Assembly (NCBI GenBank): GCA_964016885.1
Contig: OZ024741.1
Span: 335,110,001 to 335,174,000 of the forward strand
Source of the DNA: Eledone cirrhosa
Taxonomy: Eukaryota
DNA length: 64,000 nucleotides
Direction: 5' to 3'
The position numbers and the translations under genes are program-made. The notes below the pieces were generated by a model that was given only the letters and a program-made list of their open reading frames with translations, did not search any database and was not told the origin of the DNA. Positions 4,646 to 54,235 of this stretch are shown here, one piece after another. Each line of letters starts with the position of its first letter. The first letter of the stretch is position 1.

Positions 4646-4839
4646 ATAATTGTTTCTACTATTGGCACAAGGCCAGTAATTAACCCAGTGCATTACTGGT
4701 ACTTTATTTTATCGTCCCCGTAAGGTTGAAAGGCAAAGTTTTTTATTCGTGGGAATTGAACTTAGACCATAAAGGGCTGTAACTCTATGCTGCAATGCAT
4801 GGCGTCCGAGCCTCCACTGATACTGTCAATCCACTACCC
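4646..4839 (-). mobile_element. SINE family A copy
   Basis: Reverse-complement homology to 5225-5445. Confidence 0.85.
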
Positions 4840-5224
4840 ACTACAAATAATAAATATAGAAAATTGGGTAAGATAACCTTAGAGAGAGAAAAAAGTGATC
4901 AGCAGTAGCTGCAGAGAAAATCTGGCTGGAATTTAATTCTATATGCCTCACCAAGTAATTTCATGTAATTTTTTTATTTTTTTCATTTTCATTTGATGAA
5001 ATACTCCAAGGACAGGATTTGACATGAAATTATATGGCAAGGACAATATTAAGATAGATATGTGATGAAGAAGACCAGTTAAATGTAGAGGAGACAATTG
5101 ACATATACAGGGAGGAAATGTTTAGTTGGTTCCATACACCACAACTGGGGGTGTGATAAACACTCTAACTAAAGAACAAGAGAATCATCCTCCTCCTCAT
5201 CATCATCATTATTTAACCCTTTAA

Positions 5225-5445
5225 GGGTGCTGGATTGGCAGTATCAGTAGAGGGTCGGACGCCATGCTTTGCGACATAGAGTTATGGCCCTTTATGATCT
5301 GAGTTCAAATCATACTGAGGTTAACTTTGCTTTTCATCCTTACGGGGTCAATAAAATAAAGTACCAGTCATGCACTGGGGTCGATTTAACTGACTTTCCC
5401 TTCCCCCTAATTGCTGGCCTTGTGCCTATATAAGAAACCATTATT
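5225..5445 (+). mobile_element. tRNA-derived SINE family A
   Basis: A/B-box-like head (tggcagtatcagtag; gagttcaaatc), conserved core ctttcatccttacggggtc-ataaaataaagtaccag, and ggccttgtgcc..attatt tail. At least 8 copies in the window. Confidence 0.85.
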
Positions 5446-5660
5446 TAACTCTTTAGCATTTAAACTGGCCGTATCCGGCCAGAATTCTCTCACCTTTTTC
5501 TATTTAAACCAACAGTAACTTGCTACTCATACTTACATTAAAATATTGTTCTCAAAATGAATAACATTAAAATCTCATAGATTCGATATTATGTAAGATA
5601 TAGCCTTTCCCGTGGAAATACAATAGTATATATAGAGTAATGTAAATGTTAAAGAGTTAA
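5445..5660. mobile_element. TTAA-flanked (piggyBac-like) MITE
   Basis: ttaactctttagcattta ... taaatgttaaagagttaa. Same family at 40702-40916 and 59291-59519. Confidence 0.7.
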
Positions 5661-6319
5661 TATCCATTGTCCATGCTAGCATGGGTTTGACAAGTTGTTC
5701 TGTTGTGAGACAAGTCAGATTAGGTGACTGTGTCTTGCTCATACAGAACTGTTTCTTGTGTGTACATATCATCATTTAACGTCCATTGCCCATGCTAGCA
5801 TAGGTTAGAAGAGTTCCCACACTCTCTCTATCTTTACAGAGTGGCCCAGGTGCATTTTTGTGGTACCGTTCACTGAAAAGTCCTGTTTACCCTTTTTATC
5901 ATGGCTGGACACCCATCGTTTCTTTCAACAGTAACTTTACAGAGTGTAAAATTACATATATATCTGATGGTACCAACACTAGTAGGGGTGTTATACCCTT
6001 GACACAATTGACGGTTCCTCTTAATCTCATGTTTGGCTAGGTTTCTATGGCTTGGTAGCCTTCCTATAGTACAAAGGGTGTCATGCCCTTGACACAACTG
6101 AAGGGTCCTCTTAATCCTTTGTTTGGCATAGTTTCCACAGGTAGGTGGCATTTGTATATATATATATATAACCTTACAGAGTGTAAAATTCCATATACTT
6201 CTGATGGGACTTGAACTTGCAACCAGTTTAAGAGGCTGTTGCCTTAACCATTAGATCAAAACAGCTTATATATATATATATAATATAAGATCAAAAGATG
6301 GTTAAAGGAGTTCCATATA

Positions 6320-6386
6320 TTTTATTATGTGCATTTCAAAAACAAACATCATCAAGCAATAATATTTGTGTTTTCATCAGATAAAA
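6320..6386 (-). ncRNA. Hammerhead ribozyme, PLE downstream copy (stem III palindrome altered to TGCACA)
   Basis: Same core and stems as the other two PLE copies, with one substitution in stem III. Confidence 0.8.
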
Positions 6387-7366
6387 CAGGAGAACATGAT
6401 ATGAAGGCTAAAAAAACACTTGTTGATAGTGCAGTTTTAAATCAACATATGAAAAGTGGTTTTAGATTGATGTGTGATATTGGGAAAAATATTTTATTTA
6501 GAGAGGGGGGGGGGATGAAAAGGGAAGGAGATGAGAGGGAGAGATGGGTGATAGAGAGAAAGAGATAGTTTTTATAACTGAGAGGAGATATATTTTTTAC
6601 ATAGAGGGGTTGAAAACCGTTGGAAGATACTGTATAAATTAAAAATTTTGAAAATTAACGAAGGGAGGATATGTGCGAGGAAAAAATATTTTATTTAGGG
6701 AGGGGGGGGGTGGAAAGGATGAAAAAAAGGGGAGAGGAGATGAGAGTGAAGGTGGAGAGGGAGAGATGGGTGATAGAGAGAAAGAGATAGTTTTTATAAC
6801 TGAGAAAAAGATATATTGTTTTAATATAGAGAGGTTGGGAACCGTTGGAAGATAATGTATAAATTAAAGGAATTTGAAAATTAACGAAGGGAAATTATGT
6901 ATGAAGATAGAGAGAAAAAAATAATAATTGTGGGTGAATATTCTAACGTCAAAAGAAGAAATGTATGTATTGTGGCAATTTCAAAATTAGCGAAGAGAAA
7001 AGTTGTTAAGGTTTGTGTGTAGAAGGATTTGAGAAAAATAATGTGAAGTTAAAGTTTGTATATTGAATTGATATGTATTAATAATGAGTTCGTTGATGGG
7101 GAGAAAAAAATAATAATAAATTAAGGATGAAATTGAGATTAAAAAGATTTATGATAGAGAGAAAAAATAATAATGATTGCGGATGAATATTCAAAATGTC
7201 AAAAACAAATGTTATTATTTTACGAGAAGATAGAATGAGGGTAATGAGTAAACGAGTATTATAGAGTGTATAATGCCCTTTAAAGTAAGGTAGATGGGTA
7301 TATTTTAAAGAGGTGTATGTATATGTGCCTTTGAGAAAAGATTCTAAATTGATAAAGAATTGAATA

Positions 7367-9826
7367 TTAACTGTATACTTTGTGAAAAGTTCTATGGAAT
7401 TTATGCAGGCAGATAGAAAACAAATCTGAGCGTCTATTTATTATAGATTCTAGGTTAGAGATAATGGTAAATTTTTCATTTAGGCAGAGATTACAGATTT
7501 TAGATAGAGAGCTGTTCAAGTATGAGGATGCAGAAGAAATCTTTTTCCAAAAGATGTTATATTTAATGTTTTTGTCTTTTAAGGACCATATGAGTTCTGA
7601 GAGAGCAGTGTTAGTTCTTTTAAGTTTGTATTTGAAAGATGAATGATGATTATAGAGACGAGCTTTAAAAGAGGTGGAAGTGGAGCCAAAATAGGTGAAG
7701 GAATTGGTGCTAGTTATAATTTTACATTCATAAATTAAGTTTTTATCGAGGCAATGGTTGTTGAGAGGACATTTATTTTTAATGCGGCAGTTGCAATTAG
7801 AGAGATTATTAATGAGTGATCTAGTGTTATCTATAGAAGGAATTGGATTGGAGAAGTTGTTTGCGATAGGAATAACAGGAATAATAGTTTCTTGATTTAG
7901 AGTTGGATTATGAACATTTAGCGAAGTTGTGTTTGACGTTGTATTTGGGTTTACAGAAGTTAGCCTAGGGTTTACAATGACGTCGGGAGTACTATTACTG
8001 TTATTATGAAATTCAATATTGGAAGGAAGAGATTTAGTATTTAATATTTTGTTGTGTTTAGAGATGATGTTGGAAATATTGGAGGATGTAGAATACGAAA
8101 ATTTGATGGTGTGTTTGTTAAATATTTTACTATAGATATGTGAGGGAGGGAAGCATTTATTTAAGGCACTAAAAAATAATTTAGGAATATTGTTATTAAT
8201 AGAGATGGAGAAAGGAGCATTATACCAGATTATGTTTTTGTATCTAGGTCTTTTATTAAAATTATTGGAATGGTCATGATTAATTATTCTACTGTAAGTT
8301 TTCCTAGAATTTGTTTCTTTATTATATTTGATTTTATCTGGATAGCCGGCTTTAGAAAGTGCGTTATTATAGTAATTGGCGTTAGCATCAAAGATGTTTT
8401 TATTAGAAGATATGTTAGATATTCTATTTCCAATATTATTAACTATAGCATTCTTGATATTGGTAGGATGGTTAGATTTAAAGTTAACATAATTAAGATT
8501 CTCATTGTTTTTATGGTAAGGGTAATATAGGCCAGTGTCAAGATTAAGAGATACATCCAAGAAATTAGCTAGTTTGATACTATTATCAAATTCAATTTTT
8601 AGGTTATGTTGGTTAAAGAGATTACGTATATTGTTCTTAATAATATTAAGTTTAACTATATTGCAATTTAGGATAGTAAAGAGTCCATCGTCACGATAAA
8701 TTCCACCGCGAAGTTGAGGAATTTTCCGACTCAAAGAGTTCAAAATGAAGATACCAATTAAATCAGTCAATTGGGATGAATCGGATGCTCCCATTGTGAT
8801 GTCGAAGTTGTTAGAGGTATCGGCTCTGGTCCAATATTCGTTGTTGAACTCTAGGATGGTTTTACGTGCGGTGAGGATGATGTGAAGTTCATCTGTGGTG
8901 ATGTCAGAATATTTAAGTGCGAAAGATAGAGCATTATTGAGAAGTGAAGGCGAAATGGAGGAATAGTAGCTGGCAATATCGAATTGAATAAATTTTAGTT
9001 TGTTTTTATTATCCAATTTGTTGAACCAGCCAATCACTTCAGAAGTACCAAACCATAAATTTAGGTTTAAAGAAGAGCAATTAGAACTAACCTGTGGGAT
9101 AATCCTATCCAAGATGGCTTTACTAACAACCCCCAGATCAGATTTAGAGGGGGCGATTAATCTAACAGGTAGTTCAGTGCGAAAATTGTTTTTGTGATCC
9201 TTGAGATTTATCCTCGGAGTTCTTGGGAGGAATGGTTCAGTCTTTTTTTCAATGCCAAGTTTTGACATAATCTCATAGGCTTCAAGGTTTATGCATTCTA
9301 AATTTTCATGGTTGGTTTTACGATACTTTTTCCTAAGTTCCTTTAGGATAAGGTTGTTATAATTATCCTTGGAAATACCACATAGGTTATTGGTTTTGTC
9401 AGAGTGGACTAAAACATTTTTTGAGGAATTTAGGTTAGAGATTGTGTTCTTGAGATTTACAAGGTGCTCTTGTCCTTTGTAAGGGTATCTCTTGAATTTA
9501 AGATTTTTTATTATTTTAGTTAATTCTTCCTCGAATTGTGCTAGATTTTTGTTGCAAGGAGGATTTCGTCTAGAATTAAAAAGATGATCGAGGAAGTTGT
9601 GTTCTTTGGTATGAAAGTTCCCTTTTAGGCGCTGGTCATAGAAATAGGCTGTCCATCTAAGTCTTCTTACGAAGGAGTCAGTTTTTTCAATAAGAAGTTT
9701 GGTGAATTCGGATTTACCAGGTATAGGAATGTCTTTAGTTGAATTGGTTATGTTGTAATAATCCATGTTGTAGAAGAAGAGGTGAAGGACCATCAAAAGG
9801 TATCCAATATGAGAGTAAGCGCTCAA
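7367..9826 (-). CDS. PLE polyprotein: reverse transcriptase plus C-terminal GIY-YIG endonuclease (Hydra-clade-like); probable ATG at 9793 or 9766
   Basis: Uninterrupted 819-codon frame. RT motifs IQFDIASYYSSI, DITMGASDS, YRDDGL, NFLDVSL. Endonuclease region CNCRIKNKC (CxCx5C), LIY..YFG, FKARLYNH, CNLCLNEK, CLH. Confidence 0.93.
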   Translation of the reverse strand: MSAYSHIGYLLMVLHLFFYNMDYYNITNSTKDIPIPGKSEFTKLLIEKTDSFVRRLRWTAYFYDQRLKGNFHTKEHNFLDHLFNSRRNPPCNKNLAQFEEELTKIIKNLKFKRYPYKGQEHLVNLKNTISNLNSSKNVLVHSDKTNNLCGISKDNYNNLILKELRKKYRKTNHENLECINLEAYEIMSKLGIEKKTEPFLPRTPRINLKDHKNNFRTELPVRLIAPSKSDLGVVSKAILDRIIPQVSSNCSSLNLNLWFGTSEVIGWFNKLDNKNKLKFIQFDIASYYSSISPSLLNNALSFALKYSDITTDELHIILTARKTILEFNNEYWTRADTSNNFDITMGASDSSQLTDLIGIFILNSLSRKIPQLRGGIYRDDGLFTILNCNIVKLNIIKNNIRNLFNQHNLKIEFDNSIKLANFLDVSLNLDTGLYYPYHKNNENLNYVNFKSNHPTNIKNAIVNNIGNRISNISSNKNIFDANANYYNNALSKAGYPDKIKYNKETNSRKTYSRIINHDHSNNFNKRPRYKNIIWYNAPFSISINNNIPKLFFSALNKCFPPSHIYSKIFNKHTIKFSYSTSSNISNIISKHNKILNTKSLPSNIEFHNNSNSTPDVIVNPRLTSVNPNTTSNTTSLNVHNPTLNQETIIPVIPIANNFSNPIPSIDNTRSLINNLSNCNCRIKNKCPLNNHCLDKNLIYECKIITSTNSFTYFGSTSTSFKARLYNHHSSFKYKLKRTNTALSELIWSLKDKNIKYNIFWKKISSASSYLNSSLSKICNLCLNEKFTIISNLESIINRRSDLFSICLHKFHRTFHKVYS

Positions 9827-9971
9827 CCGTTAAGGAGCAAGTTAATGTAGGCGGTGAGTTTATTGTAGTACAATAAAGCAATGCAGATATCGGATAAGAA
9901 GCACTCTACAGTTTGTGGGACTGGAGTATGCATAATATAAGATCCAAAGATGGTTAAAGGAGTTCCATATA

Positions 9972-10038
9972 TTTTATTATGCGCATTTCAAAAACAAACA
10001 TCATCAAGCAATAATATTTGTGTTTTCATCAGATAAAA
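9972..10038 (-). ncRNA. Hammerhead ribozyme, PLE upstream pseudo-LTR copy
   Basis: Reverse complement of the motif at 13811-13877, with the TGCGCA palindrome intact. Confidence 0.88.
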
Positions 10039-10920
10039 CAGGAGAACATGATATGAAGGCTAAAAAAACACTTGTTGATAGTGCAGTTTTAAATCAACAT
10101 ATGAAAAGTGGTTTTAGATTGATGTGTGATATTGGGAAAAATATTTTATTTAGAGAGGGGGGGGGGAAAGGATGAAAAGGGAAGGAGATGAGAGGGAGAG
10201 ATGGGTGATAGAGAGAAAGAGATAGTTTTTATAACTGAGAGGAGATATATTTTTTACATAGAGGGGTTGAAAACCGTTGGAAGATACTGTATAAATTAAA
10301 AATTTTGAAAATTAACGAAGGGAGGATATGTGCGAGGAAAAAATATTTTATTTAGGGAGGGGGGGGGTGGAAAGGATGAAAAAAAGGGGAGAGGAGATGA
10401 GAGTGAAGGTGGAGAGGGAGAGATGGGTGATAGAGAGAAAGAGATAGTTTTTATAACTGAGAAAAAGATATATTGTTTTAATATAGAGAGGTTGGGAACC
10501 GTTGGAAGATAATGTATAAATTAAAGGAATTTGAAAATTAACGAAGGGAAATTATGTATGAAGATAGAGAGAAAAAAATAATAATTGTGGGTGAATATTC
10601 TAACGTCAAAAGAAGAAATGTATGTATTGTGGCAATTTCAAAATTAGCGAAGAGAAAAGTTGTTAAGGTTTGTGTGTAGAAGGATTTGAGAAAAATAATG
10701 TGAAGTTAAAGTTTGTATATTGAATTGATATGTATTAATAATGAGTTCGTTGATGGGGAGAAAAAAATAATAATAAATTAAGGATGAAATTGAGATTAAA
10801 AAGATTTATGATAGAGAGAAAAAATAATAATGATTGCGGATGAATATTCAAAATGTCAAAAACAAATGTTATTATTTTACGAGAAGATAGAATGAGGGTA
10901 ACCTTGAAGCCTATGAGATT

Positions 10921-12822
10921 ATGTCAAAACTTGGCATTGAAAAAAAGAATGAACCATTCCTCCCAAGAACTCCGAGGATAAATCTCAAGGATCACAAAAA
11001 CAATTTTCGCACTGAACTACCTGTTAGATTAATCGCCCCCTCTAAATCTGATCTGGGGGTTGTTAGTAAAGCCATCTTGGATAGGATTATCCCACAGGTT
11101 AGTTCTAATTGCTCTTCTTTAAACCTAAATTTATGGTTTGGTACTTCTGAAGTGATTGGCTGGTTCAACAAATTGGATAATAAAAACAAACTAAAATTTA
11201 TTCAATTCGATATTGCCAGCTACTATTCCTCCATTTCGCCTTCACTTCTCAATAATGCTCTATCTTTCGCACTTAAATATTCTGACATCACCACAGATGA
11301 ACTTCACACCATCCTCACCGCACGTAAAACCATCCTAGAGTTCAACAACGAATATTGGACCAGAGCCGATACCTCTAACAACTTCGACATCACAATGGGA
11401 GCATCCGATTCATCCCAATTGACTGATTTAATTGGTATCTTCATTTTGAACTCTTTGAGTCGGAAAATTCCTCAACTTCGCGGTGGAATTTATCGTGACG
11501 ATGGACTCTTTACTATCCTAAATTGCAATATAGTTAAACTTAATATTATTAAGAACAATATACGTAATCTCTTTAACCAACATAACCTAAAAATTGAATT
11601 TGATAATAGTATCAAACTAGCTAATTTCTTGGATGTATCTCTTAATCTTGACACTGGCCTATATTACCCTTACCATAAAAACAATGAGAATCTTAATTAT
11701 GTTAACTTTAAATCTAACCATCCTACCAATATCAAGAATGCTATAGTTAATAATATTGGAAATAGAATATCTAACATATCTTCTAATAAAAACATCTTTG
11801 ATGCTAACGCCAATTACTATAATAACGCACTTTCTAAAGCCGGCTATCCAGATAAAATCAAATATAATAAAGAAACAAATTCTAGGAAAACTTACAGTAG
11901 AATAATTAATCATGACCATTCCAATAATTTTAATAAAAGACCTAGATACAAAAACATAATCTGGTATAATGCTCCTTTCTCCATCTCTATTAATAACAAT
12001 ATTCCTAAATTATTTTTTAGTGCCTTAAATAAATGCTTCCCTCCCTCACATATCTATAGTAAAATATTTAACAAACACACCATCAAATTTTCGTATTCTA
12101 CATCCTCCAATATTTCCAACATCATCTCTAAACACAACAAAATATTAAATACTAAATCTCTTCCTTCCAATATTGAATTTCATAATAACAGTAATAGTAC
12201 TCCCGACGTCATTGTAAACCCTAGGCTAACTTCTGTAAACCCAAATACAACGTCAAACACAACTTCGCTAAATGTTCATAATCCAACTCTAAATCAAGAA
12301 ACTATTATTCCTGTTATTCCTATCGCAAACAACTTCTCCAATCCAATTCCTTCTATAGATAACACTAGATCACTCATTAATAATCTCTCTAATTGCAACT
12401 GCCGCATTAAAAATAAATGTCCTCTCAACAACCATTGCCTCGATAAAAACTTAATTTATGAATGTAAAATTATAACTAGCACCAATTCCTTCACCTATTT
12501 TGGCTCCACTTCCACCTCTTTTAAAGCTCGTCTCTATAATCATCATTCATCTTTCAAATACAAACTTAAAAGAACTAACACTGCTCTCTCAGAACTCATA
12601 TGGTCCTTAAAAGACAAAAACATTAAATATAACATCTTTTGGAAAAAGATTTCTTCTGCATCCTCATACTTGAACAGCTCTCTATCTAAAATCTGTAATC
12701 TCTGCCTAAATGAAAAATTTACCATTATCTCTAACCTAGAATCTATAATAAATAGACGCTCAGATTTGTTTTCTATCTGCCTGCATAAATTCCATAGAAC
12801 TTTTCACAAAGTATACAGTTAA
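10921..12822 (+). CDS. 5'-truncated second copy of the PLE RT/GIY-YIG ORF (lacks about 180 N-terminal residues)
   Basis: 633 aa matching the C-terminal part of the 819-aa ORF, with two differences seen (KTE/KNE, HII/HTI). Truncated at the inversion junction at 10900. Confidence 0.9.
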   Translation: MSKLGIEKKNEPFLPRTPRINLKDHKNNFRTELPVRLIAPSKSDLGVVSKAILDRIIPQVSSNCSSLNLNLWFGTSEVIGWFNKLDNKNKLKFIQFDIASYYSSISPSLLNNALSFALKYSDITTDELHTILTARKTILEFNNEYWTRADTSNNFDITMGASDSSQLTDLIGIFILNSLSRKIPQLRGGIYRDDGLFTILNCNIVKLNIIKNNIRNLFNQHNLKIEFDNSIKLANFLDVSLNLDTGLYYPYHKNNENLNYVNFKSNHPTNIKNAIVNNIGNRISNISSNKNIFDANANYYNNALSKAGYPDKIKYNKETNSRKTYSRIINHDHSNNFNKRPRYKNIIWYNAPFSISINNNIPKLFFSALNKCFPPSHIYSKIFNKHTIKFSYSTSSNISNIISKHNKILNTKSLPSNIEFHNNSNSTPDVIVNPRLTSVNPNTTSNTTSLNVHNPTLNQETIIPVIPIANNFSNPIPSIDNTRSLINNLSNCNCRIKNKCPLNNHCLDKNLIYECKIITSTNSFTYFGSTSTSFKARLYNHHSSFKYKLKRTNTALSELIWSLKDKNIKYNIFWKKISSASSYLNSSLSKICNLCLNEKFTIISNLESIINRRSDLFSICLHKFHRTFHKVYS

Positions 12823-13810
12823 TATTCAATTCTTTATCAATTTAGAATCTTTTCTCAAAGGCACATATACATACACCTCTTTAAAATATACCCATCTACC
12901 TTACTTTAAAGGGCATTATACACTCTATAATACTCGTTTACTCATTACCCTCATTCTATCTTCTCGTAAAATAATAACATTTGTTTTTGACATTTTGAAT
13001 ATTCATCCGCAATCATTATTATTTTTTCTCTCTATCATAAATCTTTTTAATCTCAATTTCATCCTTAATTTATTATTATTTTTTTCTCCCCATCAACGAA
13101 CTCATTATTAATACATATCAATTCAATATACAAACTTTAACTTCACATTATTTTTCTCAAATCCTTCTACACACAAACCTTAACAACTTTTCTCTTCGCT
13201 AATTTTGAAATTGCCACAATACATACATTTCTTCTTTTGACGTTAGAATATTCACCCACAATTATTATTTTTTTCTCTCTATCTTCATACATAATTTCCC
13301 TTCGTTAATTTTCAAATTCCTTTAATTTATACATTATCTTCCAACGGTTCCCAACCTCTCTATATTAAAACAATATATCTTTTTCTCAGTTATAAAAACT
13401 ATCTCTTTCTCTCTATCACCCATCTCTCCCTCTCCACCTTCACTCTCATCTCCTCTCCCCTTTTTTTCATCCTTTCCATCCCCCCCCCCTCCCTAAATAA
13501 AATATTTTTTCCTCGCACATATCCTCCCTTCGTTAATTTTCAAAATTTTTAATTTATACAGTATCTTCCAACGGTTTTCAACCCCTCTATGTAAAAAATA
13601 TATCTCCTCTCAGTTATAAAAACTATCTCTTTCTCTCTATCACCCATCTCTCCCTCTCATCTCCTTCCCTTTTCATCCTTTCCCCCCCCCCCTCTCTAAA
13701 TAAAATATTTTTCCCAATATCACACATCAATCTAAAACCACTTTTCATATGTTGATTTAAAACTGCACTATCAACAAGTGTTTTTTTAGCCTTCATATCA
13801 TGTTCTCCTG

Positions 13811-13877
13811 TTTTATCTGATGAAAACACAAATATTATTGCTTGATGATGTTTGTTTTTGAAATGCGCATAATAAAA
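13811..13877 (+). ncRNA. Type I minimal hammerhead ribozyme in the PLE pseudo-LTR
   Basis: ttttat-CTGATGA(13817)-stem II-GAAA(13860)-palindromic TGCGCA-TA|ataaaa. Stem I is ttttat/ataaaa. Predicted cleavage after 13871. Confidence 0.88.
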
Positions 13878-13999
13878 TATATGGAACTCCTTTAACCATC
13901 TTTGGATCTTATATTATGCATACTCCAGTCCCACAAACTGTAGAGTGCTTCTTATCCGATATCTGCATTGCTTTATTGTACTACAATAAACTCACCTCC

Positions 14000-14064
<65 letters not shown>

Positions 14065-15409
14065 ATGTGTATCTGTTGTATTCTGTATTATATATTTATA
14101 TCTATATATTTCATTATAACTTTTTTGTTTTATATGTATATATATATATATGTGTATGTGTCTGTGTGTATATATATATACATACAAACATGCATACACA
14201 CGCACACATATATATGTATACCTATACACATGGGATAGTCAAGTAAAGTCCATAGGTAAATACGCATAGACATACACATACCTGCACTACACATGCACTA
14301 CACATGCACATGCACTACACATGCCCCACACATGAATAATCAATCACAGCATATTGTAAGATTTCAAGAATCTATGAGTGTATCTAAATGAGTGTATGCA
14401 TACGTGCTAATATATACTTAAATGTTAGCAATTTAATCCCACTTTACTGGAGATGATAAAATTTCTTGGGTTAAAAACAATAATTTCACCATCATCTCTA
14501 CCCCCACCCCCCACAACCATTTACATTAACTCCACCATTCCACCAGCTAGATCTTCATAAAAGACATGCCATGCTGCTGCTGTTGTAACATGATAACTTC
14601 TTGGCCATCGTAAACAAGATTCGAATTCTGTAATGCTGAGCAAAGTTGGAGCATTCTATGTTTCTACTTGAACTCCTTTACGATGGTTAAGGCACGCATA
14701 TTGAACCAAATTTCTGCTGAATATGCTACTTTCTATAATTCCCCAGCTCCAAAGTCACGTATACTTTTGACAATTACTTCTTTGAGCCTGTCTTTCTTTC
14801 TTTCTTGTCAATTATTCGTTTCATAGCACCGTTCTATATTGTCACGGACTGCTTCTACATTCAAAGGAGACTGTTTTTGTATTTAATTGTGTAAGACTAA
14901 CTGATAGTAGTGCTTGAGTTTCAACTGGCCAAAATAACTGCTGGTTTAACAATTTTATTCTAGTCTTGTTGTCTTTTTGTTTTAGTTTTTTATATAATTG
15001 ACACATTATACACACACATGCACACATACACATACATATATATATATATGTATATATATGTATAGTATGGTTTGCTAATTTGTTGTGGAACTAATTCTCT
15101 CTCTCTATATATATATACACACACACACATATGATGATATATTATATATATATATATATAAATGAAAGGTATAGAAAACACTGCAGCGAAAAGCGAACAG
15201 CATTCCATAATATATAAGTGACTATAGCGTCAAAATGGGAAAAATAGTTAACGTAAGATGTGGGAAAAATAATTCAAACTCATCTCAAAGAGAATCAGGA
15301 TATAAATTCATCCACAAAATTTAGTGAAATCCAGGGAAAAATCAATAGAGCCTTAACTCATGATAAAATAAAGTCTAAAGTACTTATCCTTCAATTTGGA
15401 AAAACTTCA

Positions 15410-21249: not shown

Positions 21250-21827
21250 TGGTAACATGTATCCCAGTACAACCTAGTCGGGTCGTTGGCGACTAAACTG
21301 GCAACCCCACCAAGGTTTCTTGGTGAGGAGGGTGACTTTGGACATCCTGCAGGACTAAAAACAAAACCTGTCAAAGGGCAAAGGAGCTCTTAAAAGTCAA
21401 TGGCCATCCAAAATCACCGGGAGAGATGACCCCTTAGCCTTTGTCAAGGCAGAATTCTAGGAGAAGGAAAACTCTGATATAACATCTGCAACCCTGATGG
21501 TATCCAATGATGTTGACTTGTTCTTCTTTTTGGTAAATATCATCTTCGTTAAGAGAGTGGGACTGGCTTTGTGCAGTGCCTTTGCTCACTATAAAAGCTT
21601 CACAGCACAGGCTTTGCTTTATATCTGGAGATCTCTCTGCACTTGTTGTCACATGGTACCATGGGCCCAGCACTATGTGTCAATAATTGTCACAAGTGTA
21701 GTGTTTGTACCAGAGTTTTCAAGTCGCTGGCTGGACTAAAAAGTCACACTCGTTCAGCGCATCGATAGGGGTTCTCCTACATGGATATAAAGTAGTGGCC
21801 GTACTCGAAAACGAGTTGGCAGCCACC
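21250..21827 (+). mobile_element. Internally deleted RTE-like element (putative 5' UTR fused to a C-terminal C2H2 finger and 3' end)
   Basis: 21682-21768 reads NNCHKCSVCTRVFKSLAGLKSHTRSAHR*. The upstream motif ctaggagaaggaaaactctga resembles RTE 5' UTRs as I recall them (not verified). Confidence 0.55.
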
Positions 21828-30760: not shown

Positions 30761-31777
30761 ATACAGAAAGATAGATATACCTACATGTATACAGGAAGAT
30801 AGATATACCTACATGTATACAGAAAGATAGATATACCTACATGTATACAGAAAGATAGATATACCTACATGTATACAGGAAGATAGATATACCTACATGT
30901 ATACAGAAAGATAGATATACCTACATGCATACAGGAAGATAGATATACCTACATGTATACAGGAAGATAGATATACCTACATGTATACAGAAAGATAGAT
31001 ATACCTACATGTATACAGAAAGATAGATATACCTACATGTATACAGGAAGATAGATATACCTACATGTATACAGGAAGATAGATATACCTACATGTATAC
31101 AGGAAGATAGATATACCTACATGTATACAGGAAGATAGATATACCTACATGTATACAGAAAGATAGATATACCTACATGTATACAGGAAGATAGATATAC
31201 CTACATGTATACAGGAAGATAGATATACCTACATGTATACAGGAAGATAGATATACCTACATGTATACAGGAAGATAGATATACCTACATGTATACAGAA
31301 AGATAGATATACCTACATGTATACAGGAAGATAGATATACCTACATGTATACAGGAAGATAGATATACCTACATGTATACAGGAAGATAGATATACCTAC
31401 ATGTATACAGGAAGATAGATATACCTACATGTATACAGGAAGATAGATATACCTACATGTATACAGGAAGATAGATATACCTACATGTATACAGAAAGAT
31501 AGATATACCTACATGTATACAGGAAGATAGATATACCTACATGTATACAGAAAGATAGATATACCTACATGTATACAGGAAGATAGATATACCTACATGT
31601 ATACAGAAAGATAGATATACCTACATGTATACAGGAAGATAGATATACCTACATGTATACAGAAAGATAGATATACCTACATGTATACAGAAAGATAGAT
31701 ATACCTACATGTATACAGGAAGATAGATATACCTACATGTATACAGGAAGATAGATATACCTACATGTATACAGGAA
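30761..31777 (+). repeat. 28-bp minisatellite, about 36 copies
   Basis: acagRaagatagatatacctacatgtat, essentially one variable site. Confidence 0.97.
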
Positions 31778-31794
31778 TATTCATACACACATAA

Positions 31795-33113
31795 GCACAT
31801 GGACACACACAGGCACGTGGACACACACACAGGCACATGGTCACACACAGGCACATGGACACACACAGGCACATGGACACACACACAGGCACATGGACAC
31901 ACAGGCACATGGACACACACACAGGCACATGGACACACACACAGGCACATGGACACACACACAGGCACATGGACACACAGGCACATGGACACACACACAG
32001 GCACATGGACACACAGGCACATGGACACACACACAGGCACATGGTCACACACAGGCACATGGTCACACACACAGGCACATGGACACACACAGGCACATGG
32101 ACACACAGGCACATGGACACACACACAGGCACATGGACACACACACAGGCACATGGACACACACACAGGCACATGGTCACACACAGGCACATGGTCACAC
32201 ACACAGGCACATGGTCACACACAGGCACATGGTCACACACACAGGCACATGGACACACACACAGGCACATGGACACACACACAGGCACATGGACACACAC
32301 ACAGGCACATGGTCACACACAGGCACATGGTCACACACACAGGCACATGGACACACACAGGCACATGGACACACACACAGGCACATGGACACACAGGCAC
32401 ATGGACACACACACAGGCACATGGACACACACACAGGCACATGGACACACACACAGGCACATGGACACACAGGCACATGGACACACACACAGGCACATGG
32501 ACACACAGGCACATGGACACACACACAGGCACATGGTCACACACAGGCACATGGTCACACACACAGGCACATGGACACACACAGGCACATGGACACACAC
32601 ACAGGCACATGGACACACACACAGGCACATGGTCACACACAGGCACATGGTCACACACACAGGCACATGGACACACACAGGCACATGGACACACACACAG
32701 GCACATGGACACACAGGCACATGGACACACACACAGGCACATGGACACACACACAGGCACATGGACACACACACAGGCACATGGACACACACAGGCACAT
32801 GGACACACAGGCACATGGACACACACACAGGCACATGGACACACACACAGGCACATGGACACACACACAGGCACATGGTCACACACAGGCACATGGTCAC
32901 ACACACAGGCACATGGACACACACAGGCACATGGACACACAGGCACATGGACACACACACAGGCACATGGACACACACACAGGCACATGGACACACACAG
33001 GCACATGGTCACCCAGGCACATGGACACACACAGGCACATGGTCACACACACAGGCACATGGACACACACAGGCACATGGTCACACACACAGGCACGTGG
33101 ACACACACAGGCA
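31795..33113 (+). repeat. Variable-length (16/18/20-bp) minisatellite, about 70 units
   Basis: aggcacatggW(ca)n units. Explains all the long low-complexity ORFs in this region. Confidence 0.97.
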
Positions 33114-35966: not shown

Positions 35967-37483
35967 TATATTTACACTAATTACTGTATATTTACACTAA
36001 TTAGAGTATATTTACACTAATTACTGTATATTTACACTAATTACTGTACATTTATACTAATTACTGTATATTTACACTAATTACTGTATATTTACACTAA
36101 TTACAGTATATTTACACTAATTACTGTATATTTACACTAATTACTGCATATTTACACTAATTACTGGTATATTTACACTAATTACGGTATATTTAAAATA
36201 ATTTTAGTATATGTACACTAATTACTGTATATGTACACTAATTACTGTATATTTACACTAATTACTGTACATTTATACTAATTACTGTATATTTACACTA
36301 ATAACTGGTATATTTACACTAATTACTGTATATTTACACTAATTACTGTACATTTATACTAATTACTGTATATTTACACTAATTTTAGTATATTTACACT
36401 AATTACTGTATATTTACACTAATTACTGTACATTTATACTAATTACTGTATATTTACACTAATTTTAGTATATTTACACTAATTACTGTATATTTATACT
36501 AATTACTGTACATTTATACTAATTACTGTATATTTACACTAATAACAGTATATTTACACTAATTACTGTATATTTACACTAATTACTGGTATATTTACAC
36601 TAATTACTGTATATTTACACTAATTACTGTATATTTACACTAATTACTGGTATATTTACACTAATTACTGTATATTTACACTAATTACTGGTATATTTAC
36701 ACTAATTACTGGTATATTTACACTAATTTTAGTATATGTACACTAATTACTGTATATTTACACTAATTACTGTACATTTATACTAATTACTGTATATTTA
36801 CACTAATAACAGTATATTTACACTAATTACTGGTATATTTACACTAATTTTAGTATATATACACTAATTACTGTATATTTACACTAATTACTGTACATTT
36901 ATACTAATTACTGTATATTTACACTAATAACAGTATATTTACACTAATTACTGTATATTTACACTAATTACTGGTATATTTACACTAATTACTGTATATT
37001 TACACTAATTACTGTATATTTACACTAATTACTGGTATATTTACACTAATTACTGGTATATTTACACTAATTTTAGTATATGTACACTAATTACTGTATA
37101 TTTACACTAATTACTGTACATTTATACTAATTACTGTATATTTACACTAATAACAGTATATTTACACTAATTACTGGTATATTTACACTAATTACTGGTA
37201 TATTTACACTAATTACTGTACATTTATACTAATTACTGTATATTTACACTAATAACAGTATATTTACACTAATTACTGTATATTTACACTAATTACTGTA
37301 TATTTACACTAATTACTGTATATTTACACTAATTACTGTATATTTACACTAATTACTGGTATATTTACACTAATTACTGTATATTTACACTAATTACTGG
37401 TATATTTACACTAATTACTGGTATATTTACACTAATAACAGTATATGTACACTAATTACTGTATATTTATACTAATTACTCTA
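35967..37483 (+). repeat. 20/21-bp minisatellite, about 75 copies
   Basis: tatatttacactaattactg, with recurring variants (actgg, tttag, aacag, tacatttatac). Confidence 0.97.
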
Positions 37484-37789
37484 TATTCTCAGTCTTTTAA
37501 ATTCAATTAAATTTGGTTCTATTCTTTAATTTAAAAAAAATTCTATTTAAATTTTTCTTTACTTAAAATCTATTTCTGTTTTTCTTATTTGTAACTATTC
37601 CTCCTTCCCCCCAGCCTACCCATCCCACTAATGTTATTGATAGCACATCTCAAATTTCTTACATCTTTACCTACAGCAACATTTTTTTTCTTTCAATTAC
37701 CTTTTGTTTTGATGCCAAAATATTTATTTATGGCTTTCGCTATCACCTCCTCCCAAACCCCCCACCCAAACCCCACCCCACAACCCAGC

Positions 37790-42950: not shown

Positions 42951-43174
42951 TATAAATATATATGTATATATCATCATCATCACCGTTTTACGTCCATTCT
43001 TCCACGTTAGCATGGGTTAGACGGGTTGTCCTGTTGTGGGCAGTGTCCAGTCGGCTGACCTTGTCTTGCTCATATGGGAACTGATTCTGGCTTGATTTCT
43101 ACAGCTGGATGCCCTTCCTAACATCAACCTCATTTACAGTAAGTGCTGGGTACTTTTTTGCCGTGGCAGCTCTA

Positions 43175-43460
43175 CAAAAATAAGAGGAATCAAATGCTGT
43201 GTGCAGGAGAGGAGATTGCGTTGGTATGGACATGTGATGCATATGAAGGATGATGGTTGCATAAAAAGGTGCAGAGCACTAGAAGTCGATGGCAGCCGCG
43301 GAGTGGGGAGACCCAAGAAGACCTGGAATGAGGTGATAAAAGCCAACCTTACACAATTGCACCTCTAAAAGGCAATGACACACGACTGTGATCTCTGGCG
43401 TCATGCAGTAATACAGAAGACCCGACTTCCCACGAGTACAAGCCGAAGCTGAAGCATATA
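43175..43460 (+). pseudogene. RTE LINE 3' fragment
   Basis: IRGIKCCVQERRLRWYGHVMHMKDDG..GRPKKTWNEVIK. Confidence 0.8.
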
Positions 43461-43482
43461 GACAATATGCCCCCACCCCCTC

Positions 43483-43768
43483 CCACTGCAAAGTGATCGT
43501 GGAGGTGCCACGGCAAAAAAGCACCCAGCCCATACTGTAAAGTGGATGTGTAGTCGCCACAGAAAAGAAAGCACCCAGCACTCATTGTAAATGAGGTTGG
43601 TGTTAGGAAGGGCATCCAGCTGTAGAAATCAAGCCAGAATCAGTTCCCGTATGAGCAAGACAAGGTCAGCCAACTGGACACTGCCCACAACAGGACAACC
43701 CATCTAACCCATGCTAGCATGGAAGAACGGACGTAAAACGGTGATGATGATGATGATGATGATGATGA
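43483..43768 (+). mobile_element. SINE family C (RTE-type (TGA)n tail); further copies at about 17575, 18097, 28340, 38990, 42971, 47845, 49310, 54244, 55311, 59623
   Basis: Recurrent aaagcacccag..ctgtaaa..gttaggaagggcatccagc..catgctagcatggaa..gacgt..(tga)n. Confidence 0.8.
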
Positions 43769-43875: not shown

Positions 43876-43924
<49 letters not shown>

Positions 43925-43927
43925 TAT

Positions 43928-44155
43928 GAAATGTTTCCGTAGGAAAGGTAAAGGAAAAGAGAGTGCTCTATGTAGGCTACAGACCTTTTTAGTTATGTAA
44001 TAAACAACATAAGATAATTATTTCATTTACCAAAGGTTTCACGAAGACACATGAGCCTGACACAGACGTCTGATTTCAGTCGTCAGGCTCATCTGTCTTC
44101 GTGGAACCTTTGGTAAATGAAATAATTATCTGATGTTGTTTATTACATAACTAAA
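43928..44155. mobile_element. Fold-back element related to 53948-54235, folded within HHR stem II (only the GAAA-cctttgg-TA half retained)
   Basis: Arms about 43988-44061 and 44082-44155. Shares taccaaaggtttc and the ttccg-aggaaa..agagtgctctatgta tail with the 53948 element. Confidence 0.75.
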
Positions 44156-47172: not shown

Positions 47173-48181
47173 TGTCTCTCTGTCTGTCTGTCTATCCATC
47201 CATTTGTCTATCTACACCTCTTTCTTTCTCTCTCACACTTGCACACAATGTATATGTGTGTGTGTGTGTGTGTGTAATTATATATAACAAAGGATTAACA
47301 AGGATTATTATTAAAGCATTTAATTTATATATGTCCTTTCAATAGACTATCAGGAATGTTCCATTCTTGCAAGAATAACTCCTCAGAATCGATCAAATAC
47401 AAATAAATATGTTATATATATATGTGTCTGTGGCAGGGGCGAAGGGTGTGTGCATGCAACGCATGCAGTGCATGCATTATAGAATCTTGAGTTTATCAAT
47501 TGTGTCGGTTGAAGCAAGCAGAATTTTGGCTGCTTACTAAATCGTAGACACATAAAAAAGATAACACACACACACACACGACAGCGTCAGTTGAAGCAAG
47601 CAGAATTTTGGCTGCTTGCTAAATGGTAAACACATAAAAAGATAACACACGCACACTCACACACTAGATAACACTACATGCGGCTTTGACCGGGAGGGTC
47701 ATTTAGAGGGAATTGGGGGTGGGAGGGATAAGGCTGCACAGCCCCACTTTCCACCATGGCGATTTGGACTGCATGCCCTGCTTTCCAGGTTACCCTTCGT
47801 CACTGGTGGGTGTACATACATACATACACATGCATATATATACATATCATCATCATTGTCGATTAACGTCTATCTTCCAGGCTAGCAGGAGTTAGACGGG
47901 TTTGTCCCAATTAGAGGCAAGTTGGGTTGGGTGACCATGTCTCGCTCATATAGGAGAGTTTCTGGTGGTTTTCTATGGCTGGTTGCTCTTCCTAACGCCA
48001 ACCACATTGACAGTGTGTGCTGGGTACTTTTTGCCATGTCTTTTACACATCCACTTCACAGTGTGGACTGGGTGTTTTGGGGCTGGTTTTCTATGGCTGG
48101 ATGCCCATCCTAGCGCCAACCACATTTATAGTGTGTGCTGGGTTCTTTTTGTCATGACACCTACATATATATATATATATA

Positions 48182-49095
48182 TATACTAATTATTATACTA
48201 CAGTTTGTCCATATCGATTTAAAATAATAAATCAACGGAGACGAACTGTATTGGCAAAAGGCCGTGATGTTTAGACACATTTAAATTTCAAAATCAAACC
48301 TGTTCCGTAGATAAGTTTAGACTTTAAGATCCAAATATGTTTCGAGTTAAAGTCTAAACTTATCTACGAAACAGGTTTGATTTTGAAATTTAAATGTGTC
48401 TAAACATCACGGCCTTTTGCCAATACAGTTCGTCTCCGTTGATTTATTATTTTAAATCGATATGGACAAACTGTAGTATAATAATTAGTATACTTCAATC
48501 TGGCTAAATTTTTCTTTCGCAATATATATACAGATGTGTTGGTATCTGTGTTTCATCACATACATATTAATTTATACACTGCTCATGGGATATATTTTTT
48601 CCTCATTCGAGCTGATTCCATTGTAAAAGAATTCATTACCTTATTAATTTTAATCTGCTCCTAGTTTGAGCTGCAAAGCCGCCTCATATACATGACTGTT
48701 ATTTCTAGCAGTACGGTTATGAGACTAGTTAGATACTGTAAAGCCATGTGCGCCACGCAGTCTTTTAAATTATTTAGAAGTGAAGCATATCAATTTGTCT
48801 CTGGATGTTTACTGAGGAGAGCGGGACTTGATATTCCTACACTTTTTTAACTCGAAACATATTTGGATCTTAAAGTCTAAACTTATCTACGGAACAGGTT
48901 TGATTTTGAAATTTAAATGTGTCTAAACATCACGGCCTTTTGCCAATACAGTTCGTCTCCGTTGATTTATTATTTTAAATCGATATGGACAAACTGTAGT
49001 ATAATAATTAGTATACTTCAATCTGGCTAAATTTTTCTTTCGCAATATATATACAGATGTGTTGGTATCTGTGTTTCATCACATACATATTAATT

Positions 49096-49099
<4 letters not shown>
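48182..49099 (+). mobile_element. Non-coding HHR element: 523-bp unit present about 1.45 times, plus an inverted 5' segment, in (TA)n
   Basis: 48347-48576 is repeated at 48870-49099 (offset 523). 48182-48350 is the reverse complement of about 48847-49015. Flanked by (TA)n. Confidence 0.85.
48804..48931 (+). ncRNA. Type I hammerhead ribozyme with long stem III
   Basis: gatgttta-CTGAGGA(48812)-gag..ctc-GAAA(48854)-catattt..aaatgtg-TC|taaacatc. Perfect 8-bp stem I, GUC cleavage triplet at 48921-48923. Confidence 0.85.
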
Positions 49100-49134
<35 letters not shown>

Positions 49135-51432
49135 GGAGAAGAGTATTGAATACATTGAAGGCCATATGCTGTTGTATTTAGGTTTATTTTCATCTCCATG
49201 ATACATATTTTACTGGGGTCTATGGCTAGGTAGTGCTCTTCCTACCCACTCCTTCAGCCTTAGCTAGTCAGATGGTAGAAAAAGAAAAATTAAAATATAT
49301 ATATAACATCTCAGTCCACACTAAAGTGTTTGTGTAGGTGTCACGACAAAGAGCACCCAGTCCACGCTGTAAAGTGGTCATGTAGGAGACACAGTAAAAA
49401 GGCTCTCAGTCTACACTGTAAATGTGGTTGATGTTAGGAAGGGCATCCAGCCATAGGAAACCTGCCAGATACAGTTATATATGAGCGAGACACGGTCACC
49501 CAATCAATCTTGCCTCAAGTGGGACAAGCCCATCTAATCCATGCTATCGTGGAAGATGGACGTTAAATGATGATGATGATGATACATACAAACACAGAGG
49601 AAATTAAAAAAACAATTCAATCCTTACAATGGTATTGAGTACTCATTCTCATTAACTCAATACTAAGCATATATATATATATATATATATGTTCATGTGT
49701 GTATATTAGTGTGTGTGTGTATATGTGTGAGTGTGTATAAATGTGTGTGTTAGTGTGTATTGTCCAAAGGAAAGGCTTTGGCCGATAGTGATTGGTTGGT
49801 ACCAACATTAGTTGGAAAGTGTCAAATGTGACCCTGCAAGACACTTCATTCTATGTCTTAACCCTTTTAATACCTTACAGCCTGAAACCACCCCTGGTTC
49901 TACAATATAAAATTGTTTGTTTTAACTTAGCATCCTGTAATCAATTATGAGAAAATGTCTAAAAATTATTTGCGATTTTCAAATGTTTATAGTGTCTTTT
50001 CTAGTGGACAAATTTTTGTGAAAATTTGTAGTAAGCTAAAGTAAGAACTTTAAATTTTAATATGTAATGCAGTCATAATAATGTTTTGTACATTTCAAAA
50101 ATAACTTACTAATGCAGTTTCACACAATACAGGACATTGAGTTAAAGTCTCTATATTTATCTAAAAACCTTCAATCATAATTCTATGTCAAAACTTTTTT
50201 CTTAAGTTATGTTCCAGACACCAGCTTAATAATGCAAAAGTTAGTTATATTACTAAGATTCTTGTATTCCTCTAGATTCTTGATTATTTTCAAAACCATA
50301 GACAATGGACTGAGATGGCTGGGTCATGTGTTGAGAAAGGATGACAATGATTAGAAGAGAGGAATAGAACTAGTGATGAATGTTCTGAAGAGAAATAGAA
50401 TGAGATAGTTGGGTCGTGTGCTGGGGAAGGATGAAGGTGACTAGATGACAGAAGTGATAGGAACAGAGTCAGTGATAAATGTTATGAAGAGAAATAGAAT
50501 GAGATGACAGGACCGTGTGTTGAAGAAGGATGAAAGAGACCAGATGATAGTGAGTAAAATTTGGTAGATGCAAACTGCAGTAGTTTGTATCTGTGTTTAT
50601 GTCATATATCTAGTGGTTCGACAAAAAAGAAAAAAAAGTCCCAAACTGTAAAAGATATATGATAGCTGGCATCGATATGATCAACAACTAAATCCGTTTC
50701 AGGTGGTACACTAACATAACAGCAGTTAGATGACTAAAAATAATGAAGTTTTATATACAAGGGGAAATTATTCATTGGTTGACATTTAACTCAATACAAT
50801 GAACCAACGAAAATGGAATAAAACTGACAGCAGATATATTATATTAGACTGTTAGATATAGTGGCTTCTAATGTTAACACAGGCTCAAGAATTTGGAGGA
50901 GAAGTGGAAAGCGGATGATATCTAACCCTTCCACAATACTTTACTGGTACTTTATTTTATCAAAAGGGATGAAAGGCAAAGGTGATTTGGGTATTACTTG
51001 AAACCAAAGCATAAAAAAACTACCAAGATTGGAAATATAATATGTTGTAAAAGATCTACTAACTATAAACTAAATCTTTGAGTACATGGAGGTTATGAAA
51101 AGATTCAACAACAGAACCTCCTAGCTGCTTTACAGCTTCACTTGCTTCCCATTTTTTATTTATCTTTTTTTAATGCTTATTTTGCCTACAGTTTGCCTTC
51201 CCTATTTATTTTTTAATTTAATTTAATTTTAATTCTTATTTTTATATTCACTTATCTCTGTCTATCTTGTTTTTTTTTTTATTTTTCAACTAGATACTTC
51301 CATTAGTCTGTCATGGTTTATTAGCTCTATACTTCAGACGTTTTAATTAATTAAATAAATAAATAAACTTACGAAATCCTGTAAGGCATTCTCTCTGATT
51401 CACTGACGATTTTGCCAATCCAGCTATCAGAA

Positions 51433-52230: not shown

Positions 52231-52233
<3 letters not shown>

Positions 52234-52781
52234 AACGAGTAGGACCCCGACGGCTGAGCTCAAGCCGTTTCGACGGCTAATTCTGGACTAAATGAAAATG
52301 TTTATCCTGGTATATGAATAGCCGAGCTTCTCAGGGGGTAATTCCATATATGGTAAAAGTGATTGTCACAAGGATTGGTCAAAAGTTTGTTGTTGAGACA
52401 CATAATTCTATCATGGCAATTTGTGGAAGGAAGGGGTAGCTGAACCTGCCACTAGAAGAAAGAGGAAGAGGGAGTGGAGGAAACCCAACTCCCTCTCCCT
52501 CTTTCTTCTACTGGCAGGTTCAGCTACCCCTTACGCTAGAGGTTTACGGTATGTCGAATCTATTTATCTATAAAACTGTTTATATTGTATTTTGTCTGAT
52601 GAAGGCATAGCATATTGTTAATATGATATCCCCGAAATATATATAATGAAATAAATATGGTTTTATAAATATAGTTTTCCATTTATTTAATATTGTAAAT
52701 ATACTCCAAATATTTGTCGAGTGCTTTTATATCAGTTATAAATATTTACTTGTTGTAACCCAACAATTTTAAATATAACTT

Positions 52782-52786
<5 letters not shown>
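52231..52786. mobile_element. (TA)n-embedded element with a plus-strand HHR (52590-52651), a minus-strand HHR-like motif (52232-52344) and a central 102-nt hairpin
   Basis: Plus: ttttgt-CTGATGA..GAAA-tatata-TA|atgaaa. Minus: cccc-CTGAGAA-g..c-GAAA-cggc..gccg-TC|gggg. Hairpin 52431-52532. Confidence 0.7.
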
Positions 52787-52845
<59 letters not shown>

Positions 52846-53759: not shown

Positions 53760-53947
53760 GGAGATGGATAAGCGGCGCCTAACACCCCTTTAACAACAGA
53801 AAATTGAAAAATAAAAGCTGCAGTTAATATCTGTAGACCGCACGGAATATATAATTGCAAGTTTGAAGTCAATCGGAGTAGAAATGTGGATTTGTATAGA
53901 AATGAGGACACACACACAGACAACATCAGTTTTATATATATATATAT
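53760..53947 (-). mobile_element. Probable Helitron 5' fragment
   Basis: aagtttgaa-tc-atcgg ... (CA)n cagttttatata architecture like the 5' end of the adjacent Helitron. Confidence 0.4.
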
Positions 53948-54235
53948 GTTAGGTAATTCCGAAGGAAAAGCAAAGGAAAAAAGAGTGCTCTATGTATAGA
54001 ACAGAGCTATTTAATTAGAAAGTGAACAACACAAAATATAACTACTCCATTACCAAAGGTTTCTGGATCCCAGACAATAATAATATACATCTGGATCGGT
54101 CATCAGACAGATGTTATCTGTCTGATGATAACATCTCTGTCTGACGACCGATCCAGATGTATATTATTATTGTCTGGGATCCAGAATCCTTTGGTAATGG
54201 AGTAGCTATATTTTGTGTTGTTGACTTTCTAATTA
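53948..54235. mobile_element. Fold-back HHR element in (TA)n
   Basis: Inverted arms about 54012-54118 and 54128-54235. Minus arm has an intact tctgt-CTGATGA..GAAA-cctttgg-TA|atgga (54046-54111). Plus arm has CTGACGA..GAAT (mutated). Confidence 0.8.

Follow-up and report, generated by a model that had tools for sequence, protein, structure and literature searches.

A Penelope-like insertion with Hydra-clade motifs in Eledone cirrhosa and a repeated hairpin that may position its two ends

The DNA analyzed here, referred to as the window, is a stretch of 64,000 nucleotides from Eledone cirrhosa (NCBI GenBank assembly GCA_964016885.1, contig OZ024741.1, positions 335,110,001 to 335,174,000 of the forward strand), and all positions given below are those of the window. 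Between 6280 and 14004 lies a large Penelope-like element (PLE), which self-comparison of 5801-14300 together with base-level alignment resolves into two copies, A and B, whose 3′ ends face outward (tails-out). Its features, including the open reading frame (ORF) for a reverse transcriptase (RT) with a nuclease domain, the hammerhead ribozyme (HHR) motifs, the untranslated regions (UTRs) and the pseudo-long terminal repeat (pLTR), are as follows.

6267 to 6282, no strand: (TA)n target remnant at the left end, overlapping the last bases of the element by microhomology
6280 to 7366, minus strand: 3′ UTR of copy A, 1087 nt, G-poor; the short end, 46 nt past the HHR cut
6318 to 6388, minus strand: left-end type I HHR motif, predicted cut after 6326; a substitution at 6330 breaks the palindromic helix III
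7367 to 9766, minus strand: complete ORF, 799 aa from a conserved Met, encoding a telomerase-like RT followed by a GIY-YIG nuclease at the C terminus; frame open to 9829
7370 to 7795, minus strand: nuclease region with the CxCx5C linker (7795-7769), the GIY-YIG core (7735-7685), R703/H707/E764/N777, CxxC and CxH, and no CCHH
7796 to 8029, minus strand: 78-aa N/S/T/P-rich stretch between RT and nuclease, predicted to be disordered
8327 to 9424, minus strand: RT core with DKT (9400-9392), the motif A Asp at FDI (8983-8975) and YRDD (8698-8687)
9818 to 9838, minus strand: hairpin 2 (GCUC/GAGC type), +140 after the HHR cut and 6 nt beyond the long-end position
9900 to 9927, minus strand: hairpin 1 (ACUC/GAGU type), +51 after the HHR cut and 4 nt beyond the short-end position
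9932 to 10901, minus strand: pLTR, 970 nt, a 5′-truncated upstream unit and direct repeat of 6280-7244
9970 to 10040, minus strand: internal type I HHR motif, predicted cut after 9978; palindromic helix III intact
10900 to 10901, no strand: head-to-head junction with 2-nt microhomology and no mirror point
10900 to 12822, plus strand: copy B ORF, 5′-truncated (codons 160-799), with two substitutions relative to copy A
12823 to 13917, plus strand: copy B 3′ UTR, with a type I HHR motif inside it
13809 to 13879, plus strand: copy B type I HHR motif, predicted cut after 13871
13918 to 14004, plus strand: one-sided tail, 87 nt, holding hairpin 1 (13922-13949); the long end, 133 nt past the cut
14003 to 14046, no strand: right-end (TA)n target remnant, after which comes (TG)n

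On the minus strand, copy A occupies 10901 to 6280, with the pLTR (10901-9932) first and a full 3652-nt unit after it. Copy B, on the plus strand, extends from 10900 to 14004; it comprises codons 160-799, the 3′ UTR and then 87 more bases, which correspond to the beginning of the next unit. An initial sequence-only reading of this DNA had proposed a tails-out array flanked by (TA)n at both ends, and both are present, the layout being the ordinary Penelope form; runs of (TA) with at least four repeats make up 4.4% of the window. The 87-nt tail is found on the right only, and neither the junction at 10900 nor its flanks are mirrored, the arms lying 1610 nt apart. Copy B is without codons 1-159, and hence without the RW and DKT motifs, and there is no second intact gene. 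Across the 640 shared codons the copies differ at two residues (T/N and I/T), the same number as was first read from the sequence. The 3′ UTR of copy A also holds an internal duplication of about 200-220 nt (about 80-83% identity).

The sequence-only reading had further called the element very young and named a divergence survey as a check. The two arms differ by four substitutions in 3010 nt, or 0.13% (95% interval 0.04-0.34%), plus indels at C-runs. At a rate of 1-5 × 10−9 per site per year, which is an assumption without a source, this would bound the age at roughly 0.1-0.7 million years, and the insertion would be younger if some of the differences stem from RT errors or from unlike template units; we consider it likely to be recent. 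A pattern in which the pLTR is like copy B and unlike the end of copy A at three sites was rejected as evidence for a two-unit template, because copy B also has private indels and three events on one of three copies would be expected about 1 time in 9. A 9-mer of the left flank (6253-6261) is repeated 36 nt further on, inside the element end (6289-6297), where the second copy sits at one of two substitutions private to the left end; this could reflect chance or local conversion.

The frame on the minus strand is open for 820 codons from stop to stop (7367-9829), and its first ATG would give 808 aa. The intact ORF of 819 codons originally reported is therefore borne out as an open frame, yet the number overstates the likely protein, because the ATG at 9766, which gives 799 aa, aligns with the starts of the homologues. 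No leader intron is apparent by eye. Homologue searches yielded 20 matches at 30-38% identity and 408 representatives at E ≤ 1e-30, and in a 100-row alignment all of the catalytic residues and Cys/His motifs of both domains are kept, including the catalytic Asp residues of the RT and the Y, R, H, E and N of the nuclease. The protein is plausibly functional because every catalytic residue is kept. The predicted structure (predicted local distance difference test score, pLDDT, 89) has its best fold matches in telomerase RT (Z 16.9, root-mean-square deviation 2.7, 253 aligned), and the C-terminal model best matches the GIY-YIG domain of I-TevI (Z 8.8, root-mean-square deviation 2.3, 89 aligned), with further matches to T4 EndoII and UvrC GIY-YIG domains. 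Foldseek with the C-terminal model returned nothing at E ≤ 0.001, a PDB sequence search gave no match, and Pfam gave neither an RT match nor any other relevant family for the ORF or 15 homologues. The linker between RT and nuclease is 86 aa long vs. a median of 16 in 78 rows, an excess of 70 aa.

According to Craig et al. (2021; PMC8557442), the Hydra clade of PLEs is marked by DKT, a CxCX5C linker, the lack of CCHH, and flanking CxxC and CxH motifs, with RWK, canonical HHRs and (TA)n targets as further marks. In the present element DKT replaces DKG at aa 123-125, the CxCX5C linker is at aa 658-666, CCHH is missing from the nuclease (only a single Cys lies between the tyrosines of GIY and YIG), CxxC (C758/C761) and CxH (C786/H788) flank the catalytic E and N, a canonical HHR motif lies near the 3′ end, and insertion is in (TA)n. 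At the N-terminal RWK site RW is present and the third residue is T, where the homologues have K (32/63) or R (22/63). The general characters of endonuclease-bearing (EN+) Penelope elements are likewise present, namely a single ORF with a telomerase-related RT (from the telomerase RT folds and the kept catalytic Asp), a GIY-YIG endonuclease (from the structure match and catalytic residues), and a pLTR, partial tandem, inverted truncated copy and optional one-sided tail. The nuclease is C-terminal and HHRs are present, unlike in Naiad and Chlamys elements, which have an N-terminal nuclease and no canonical HHR. The CCHH nuclease motif and DKG of Neptune, Nematis and Penelope/Poseidon elements are absent, with DKG found in none of 55 long rows. 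The unit is not short, a non-defining tendency of the Hydra clade (<3 kb), as its 3652 nt compare with a maximum of 3045 among 27 listed families, and the distance from stop codon to cut is 1041 nt vs. about 150-265 nt in nine related loci (measured from the end of the protein match). Motif tests and by-eye comparison with the printed Hydra rows support placement in the Hydra clade, as had first been suggested, with RWT as the one departing motif. To judge from sequence identity it is a new family, since RT-core identity is at most 46% among 75 homologue rows (FastTree tree with unlabeled clades).

The three type I HHR motifs were found with our own descriptor and by folding, and they are predicted ribozymes. 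The two predicted cuts on the minus strand define a unit of 3652 nt that encloses the whole ORF, as the sequence-only reading had it. Rfam detected no HHR at gathering score in the window, nor at E ≤ 10 within 5500-15000, and what it returned instead was microRNA models placed on TA/TG repeats, along with weak matches to snoRNAs. Helix III forms a palindrome of 8 nt, and HHRs with a palindromic helix III are reported to be active as dimers, with low activity (PMC4209133). The change at 6330 weakens the predicted dimer duplex of helix III from −10.5 to −5.1 kcal/mol, still stronger than the helix III duplexes of the small elements described below (−2.2 and −3.2 kcal/mol).

Behind the HHR, the large element carries two copies of a hairpin with the pattern RCWC-stem-loop-YH-GWGY-RCW. 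For comparison, 17 loci (L-numbered) were taken from a scan of genome contigs; they appear to be animal DNA co-assembled into bacterial bins. Of 30 post-HHR segments, 19 extend 85 nt or more before reaching a TA run, and the hairpin occurs in 13 of the 19, as against a mean of 0.02 and a maximum of 1 in 200 shuffles, a control that measures chance only. Over the whole window and both strands there are six strict matches, all of them 44-140 nt past an HHR cut, in zones that make up about 1.4% of the sequence. When the 3′ half was searched first in 19 segments, a Watson-Crick partner was found for 19 of the 20 matches. Double-sided changes occur at two outer pairs (GAGU/ACUC and GUGC/GCAC), and the first inner pair is C-G in 11/19 and U-A in 8/19; outer-pair counts from this inner-pair tally are not used, as the L006 row is one base off. 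Two hairpins precede the ATG in the read-through copies of the large element and of L003, L010, L014 and L006. The ACUC/GAGU variant was not seen among the hairpins outside the window, and a hairpin is visible by eye in three published Hydra consensi. The minimum free energy z-scores of whole tails are weak (−0.6 to −1.2). No Rfam family corresponds to the hairpin in the 6 of 17 loci that were run. The main text of PMC8557442 does not mention a hairpin or stem-loop of this kind, and no description of it was found in literature listings or by term searches in the parts consulted of that paper, PMC7229834, PMC6765202 and bioRxiv 10.64898/2026.07.22.740005, subscription papers and bioRxiv supplements lying outside this scope.

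Four small non-coding HHR elements are also present in the window.

459 to 893, no strand: tails-out miniature with two HHR motifs, a short and a long end, the ACUC/GAGU hairpin, and (TA)n on both sides
43921 to 44155, no strand: tails-out miniature related to 53947-54233, with one hairpin mismatch and its short end 2 nt before the hairpin
52232 to 52787, plus strand: HHR element related to 459-893 (113/125 tail columns), with the ACUC/GAGU hairpin and a long end
53947 to 54233, no strand: tails-out miniature of another family, with the GCUC/GAGC hairpin and its short end 4 nt before the hairpin

The sequence-only reading had regarded the large element as the likely trans-acting driver of such small elements. 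Two of them, 459-893 and 52232-52787, agree with its tail in 65-70% of the aligned columns and also carry the rare ACUC/GAGU variant (for 459-893, 78/112 aligned columns, a score reached by 5 of 2000 shuffles). Upstream of the HHR they share little with it, 33 and 35 of 1000 shuffles reaching the respective scores. They are thus likely to be of the same lineage as the large element, a link to the lineage and not specifically to the present copy; the two other small elements use a different hairpin variant, and the proposed role as driver is supported in part.

The ends of these elements lie close to the hairpins. In 10 of 11 comparisons of read-through with terminal copies, in the window and related loci, the end falls 2-9 nt before a hairpin (gaps of 4, 6, 9, 4, 2, 4, 5, 5, 6 and 4 nt), and the ends join (TA)n directly through short microhomology. 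The asymmetry of a short and a long end recurs in the three miniatures of the window and in unrelated loci. In the published Hydra tables 24 of 27 families have a usable 3′ HHR row, and in these the end falls 30-48 nt past the cut in 10 and 88-153 nt past it in 11, with 3 outside both ranges. In three HHR families the long ends terminate with ACAT or TACAT beside a TA run (13999-14004, 457-462, 52781-52787 and 53945-53950), which suggests a short primer-pairing patch. At L006:3886-6445 a solo ORF lies between direct repeats of the tail, with its 5′ side starting at hairpin 1 and its 3′ side stopping before hairpin 2, an arrangement resembling the "primitive" Penelope form in PMC2377424.

We propose, with a probability of roughly 0.6, that the large element is a Hydra-motif Penelope-like insertion, likely a recent one, whose two outward ends arose from two target-primed RT events, each started 4-6 bases upstream of a hairpin. 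The protein would bind the hairpin on a tandem or circular sense RNA and nick (TA)n on both strands, with one cDNA primed per nick. The cDNA begun at hairpin 1 would have run for 1.27 units to give copy A and the pLTR, and that begun at hairpin 2 for 0.85 unit to give copy B and the 87-nt tail, the two being joined at 10900 through the 2-nt microhomology. A purified Poseidon protein does nick both strands of AT-rich DNA, and the two internal RNA sites where it starts RT are the boundaries of the tail (PMC11167929). Under this scheme every new end would lose its own priming hairpin. In sense orientation, the transcript of copy A carries its hairpins (9927 and 9838) solely upstream of the ORF, and that of copy B has only hairpin 1. 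A linear copy A transcript would therefore give rise to tails-out miniatures lacking the ORF, like those at 459-893, 43921-44155 and 53947-54233, and since no hairpin lies downstream of the copy A ORF, recopying of the ORF probably needs either HHR cleavage and circularization of the 3652-nt unit or a template jump. More broadly, and at somewhat less than even odds, the twice-repeated hairpin of the Hydra clade may serve as a ruler for two RT starts, one per target strand. Two starts positioned in this way would account for the tails-out layout, for the tail on one side only and for the small HHR elements, and full-length elements might then survive only through HHR-made circular RNA, as each round strips the priming hairpin.

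Several observations weigh against this scheme. The hairpin pattern was written after the sequences had been seen, 6 of the 19 long post-HHR segments have no strict match, and 43921-44155, which is outside the 19-segment list used for the partner search, is a further miss in that search, its hairpin having one mismatch although its end position is the same. Two of the 11 end comparisons represent one family, and the end pair of L002 lies 98 nt from the hairpin and is without (TA)n. The circle step in particular is weakened by the findings that HHR cleavage is unneeded for insertion in vitro and that no RNA ends were seen at the HHR cut of the lizard element (both PMC11167929). RT initiation alone also offers no explanation for the 5′ end of L006, which begins at hairpin 1 as does that of the Hydra-1_Ajap consensus, and these 5′ ends fit the main rival, in which the hairpins act in single-stranded cDNA or DNA and the GIY-YIG nuclease cuts 2-9 nt away, resolving a longer intermediate and thereby setting the ends. 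Craig et al. (PMC8557442) propose resolution by the nuclease as the source of the tail, the D. virilis nuclease requires the tail for recognition (cited in PMC11167929), and covariation cannot tell RNA from single-stranded DNA. For a purified PLE, however, the tail boundaries are RT start sites on RNA (PMC11167929), and the ends studied here join (TA)n by short microhomology, as primed 3′ ends should, and hence we regard nuclease resolution as unlikely. Fold-back or self-priming on the antisense template after a single priming event was proposed for head-to-head Penelope copies with junction palindromes (Arkhipova et al., 2013), and the center of miniature 459-893 is near-palindromic. The junction at 10900, in contrast, is non-palindromic, fold-back of copy A cannot yield the 87-nt tail, and fold-back of copy B cannot run past 9845 into the leader and ORF, which makes this origin of the inverted arm quite improbable.

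That the insertion is real but dead, with the protein or the ribozyme pair impaired and the family now inactive, is a minority possibility that we take seriously; it concerns current activity and is compatible with the proposed insertion mechanism. The ORF differs from the consensus in 15 of the 139 conserved columns, which puts it at rank 37 of 44 near-complete rows, and among the differences are Y129C (Y in 70/72 rows) and P269S (P in 91/97); in addition, the linker is extended as noted above, the 6330 change weakens helix III, and the ORF is without a downstream hairpin. On the other hand, the 2.4-kb ORF is uninterrupted with all catalytic residues, its departures are within the divergence range of the homologues, copy A has the commoner residue at the sites where the copies differ, the weakened duplex exceeds those of the small elements, and in Drosophila the tails-out layout is described as an active form that occurs frequently (Schostak et al., 2008; PMC2377424). 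An assembly artifact, either a palindromic read or collapsed copies, is called to mind by the near-identical 3-kb arms with indels gathered at homopolymer runs, and assemblies are known to struggle with such structures (PMC8557442). We consider it very improbable indeed, given the unmirrored junction and flanks, the spacing of the arms, the microhomology at the join and the recurrence of the short and long ends in the three miniatures and at unrelated loci.

The 3-kb inverted repeat had also been suggested as a source of long double-stranded RNA. This is possible only through read-through from outside, and no host gene spanning the element was found in the 150 of 201 unmasked open segments run against Pfam, where the only match was a single C2H2 zinc-finger remnant (21595-21765) that is below the curated cut-off and has stops on either side. 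Elsewhere in the window, a non-coding element at 48186-49095 lies in (TA)n and combines an inverted arm (48182-48492) with a direct repeat (48330-48576 = 48852-49099) and a one-sided tail of about 84 nt; its layout is PLE-like, with no strict HHR or Hydra hairpin match. An inverted repeat between TA runs at 1647-1975, with a one-sided tail of about 55-65 nt and no HHR match, is possibly a derivative of another PLE clade. Further inverted-repeat pairs (42983-43741, 4684-5379 and 47848-49581; 81-94% identity) have the look of miniature inverted-repeat transposable elements, and long minisatellite arrays, with periods of 28, 20/38 and 20 nt, lie at 30761-33113 and 35967-37487. Among the comparison loci, L015:7306-8760 and L005:1200-2640 are PLE-derived clusters of several different HHR elements nested in TA runs, on contigs filed as bacterial bins that are likely host DNA contamination. 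A bacterial promoter scan was set aside as inapplicable to an animal genome.

Craig et al. (PMC8557442) state the origin of PLE tails and inverted structures to be open, and just one PLE has been characterized in vitro (PMC11167929). With a short covarying motif from which both ends can be predicted, and with an intact ORF whose two starts are readable at one locus, the question of tail and inversion becomes directly testable. The hairpin also serves as a sequence tag by which non-autonomous repeats of Hydra origin can be annotated; the 64-kb window holds four of them.

The closest known systems share most of what is seen here. Within the Hydra clade (PMC8557442), the agreement extends from the single ORF with RT and C-terminal GIY-YIG nuclease to all of the motifs listed above other than RWK; the tails-out layout is given in the legend of Fig. 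2 of that paper, and Penelope-13_HM likewise has a 5′-truncated inverted copy. The greater length of the present unit comes from its 1.09-kb 3′ UTR and the 70-aa longer linker. Hydra-1_Obim of Octopus bimaculoides has another HHR and, with 32 of 82 residues identical in one block counted by eye, is a different family. The Poseidon element PAc of Anolis carolinensis (Frangieh et al., 2024; PMC11167929) has an AT-rich target nicked on both strands, and its one-sided tail is bounded by two internal RT starts that lie downstream of the HHR, a way of working that we infer here, but it belongs to another clade, its tail of 30-40 nt lies inside the ORF vs. 87 nt in the 5′ leader here, and one AC-rich stem-loop is described there, whereas here a conserved hairpin is repeated, one copy for each start. 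The Penelope element of Drosophila virilis and the Adineta vaga families (PMC2377424, PMC3846280) resemble the present element in the partial tandem with a pLTR, large inverted terminal repeats, optional tail and microhomology junctions, and frame-keeping Asn-rich linker insertions in A. vaga (PMC3846280) recall the N/S/T/P-rich linker, whereas these elements have the CCHH nuclease motif and tails of 31-37 nt. Non-LTR (long terminal repeat) retrozymes (PMC7229834; bioRxiv 10.64898/2026.07.22.740005) are, like the small elements, non-coding HHR derivatives proposed to be mobilized by PLEs, but they are head-to-tail tandems, whereas most of the small elements here are inverted pairs with their tails outward, set in (TA)n and bearing the Hydra hairpin. 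Set beside these systems, the element by itself represents a new family within a clade already described, in the usual Penelope layout, and the hairpin rule is the part that it adds.

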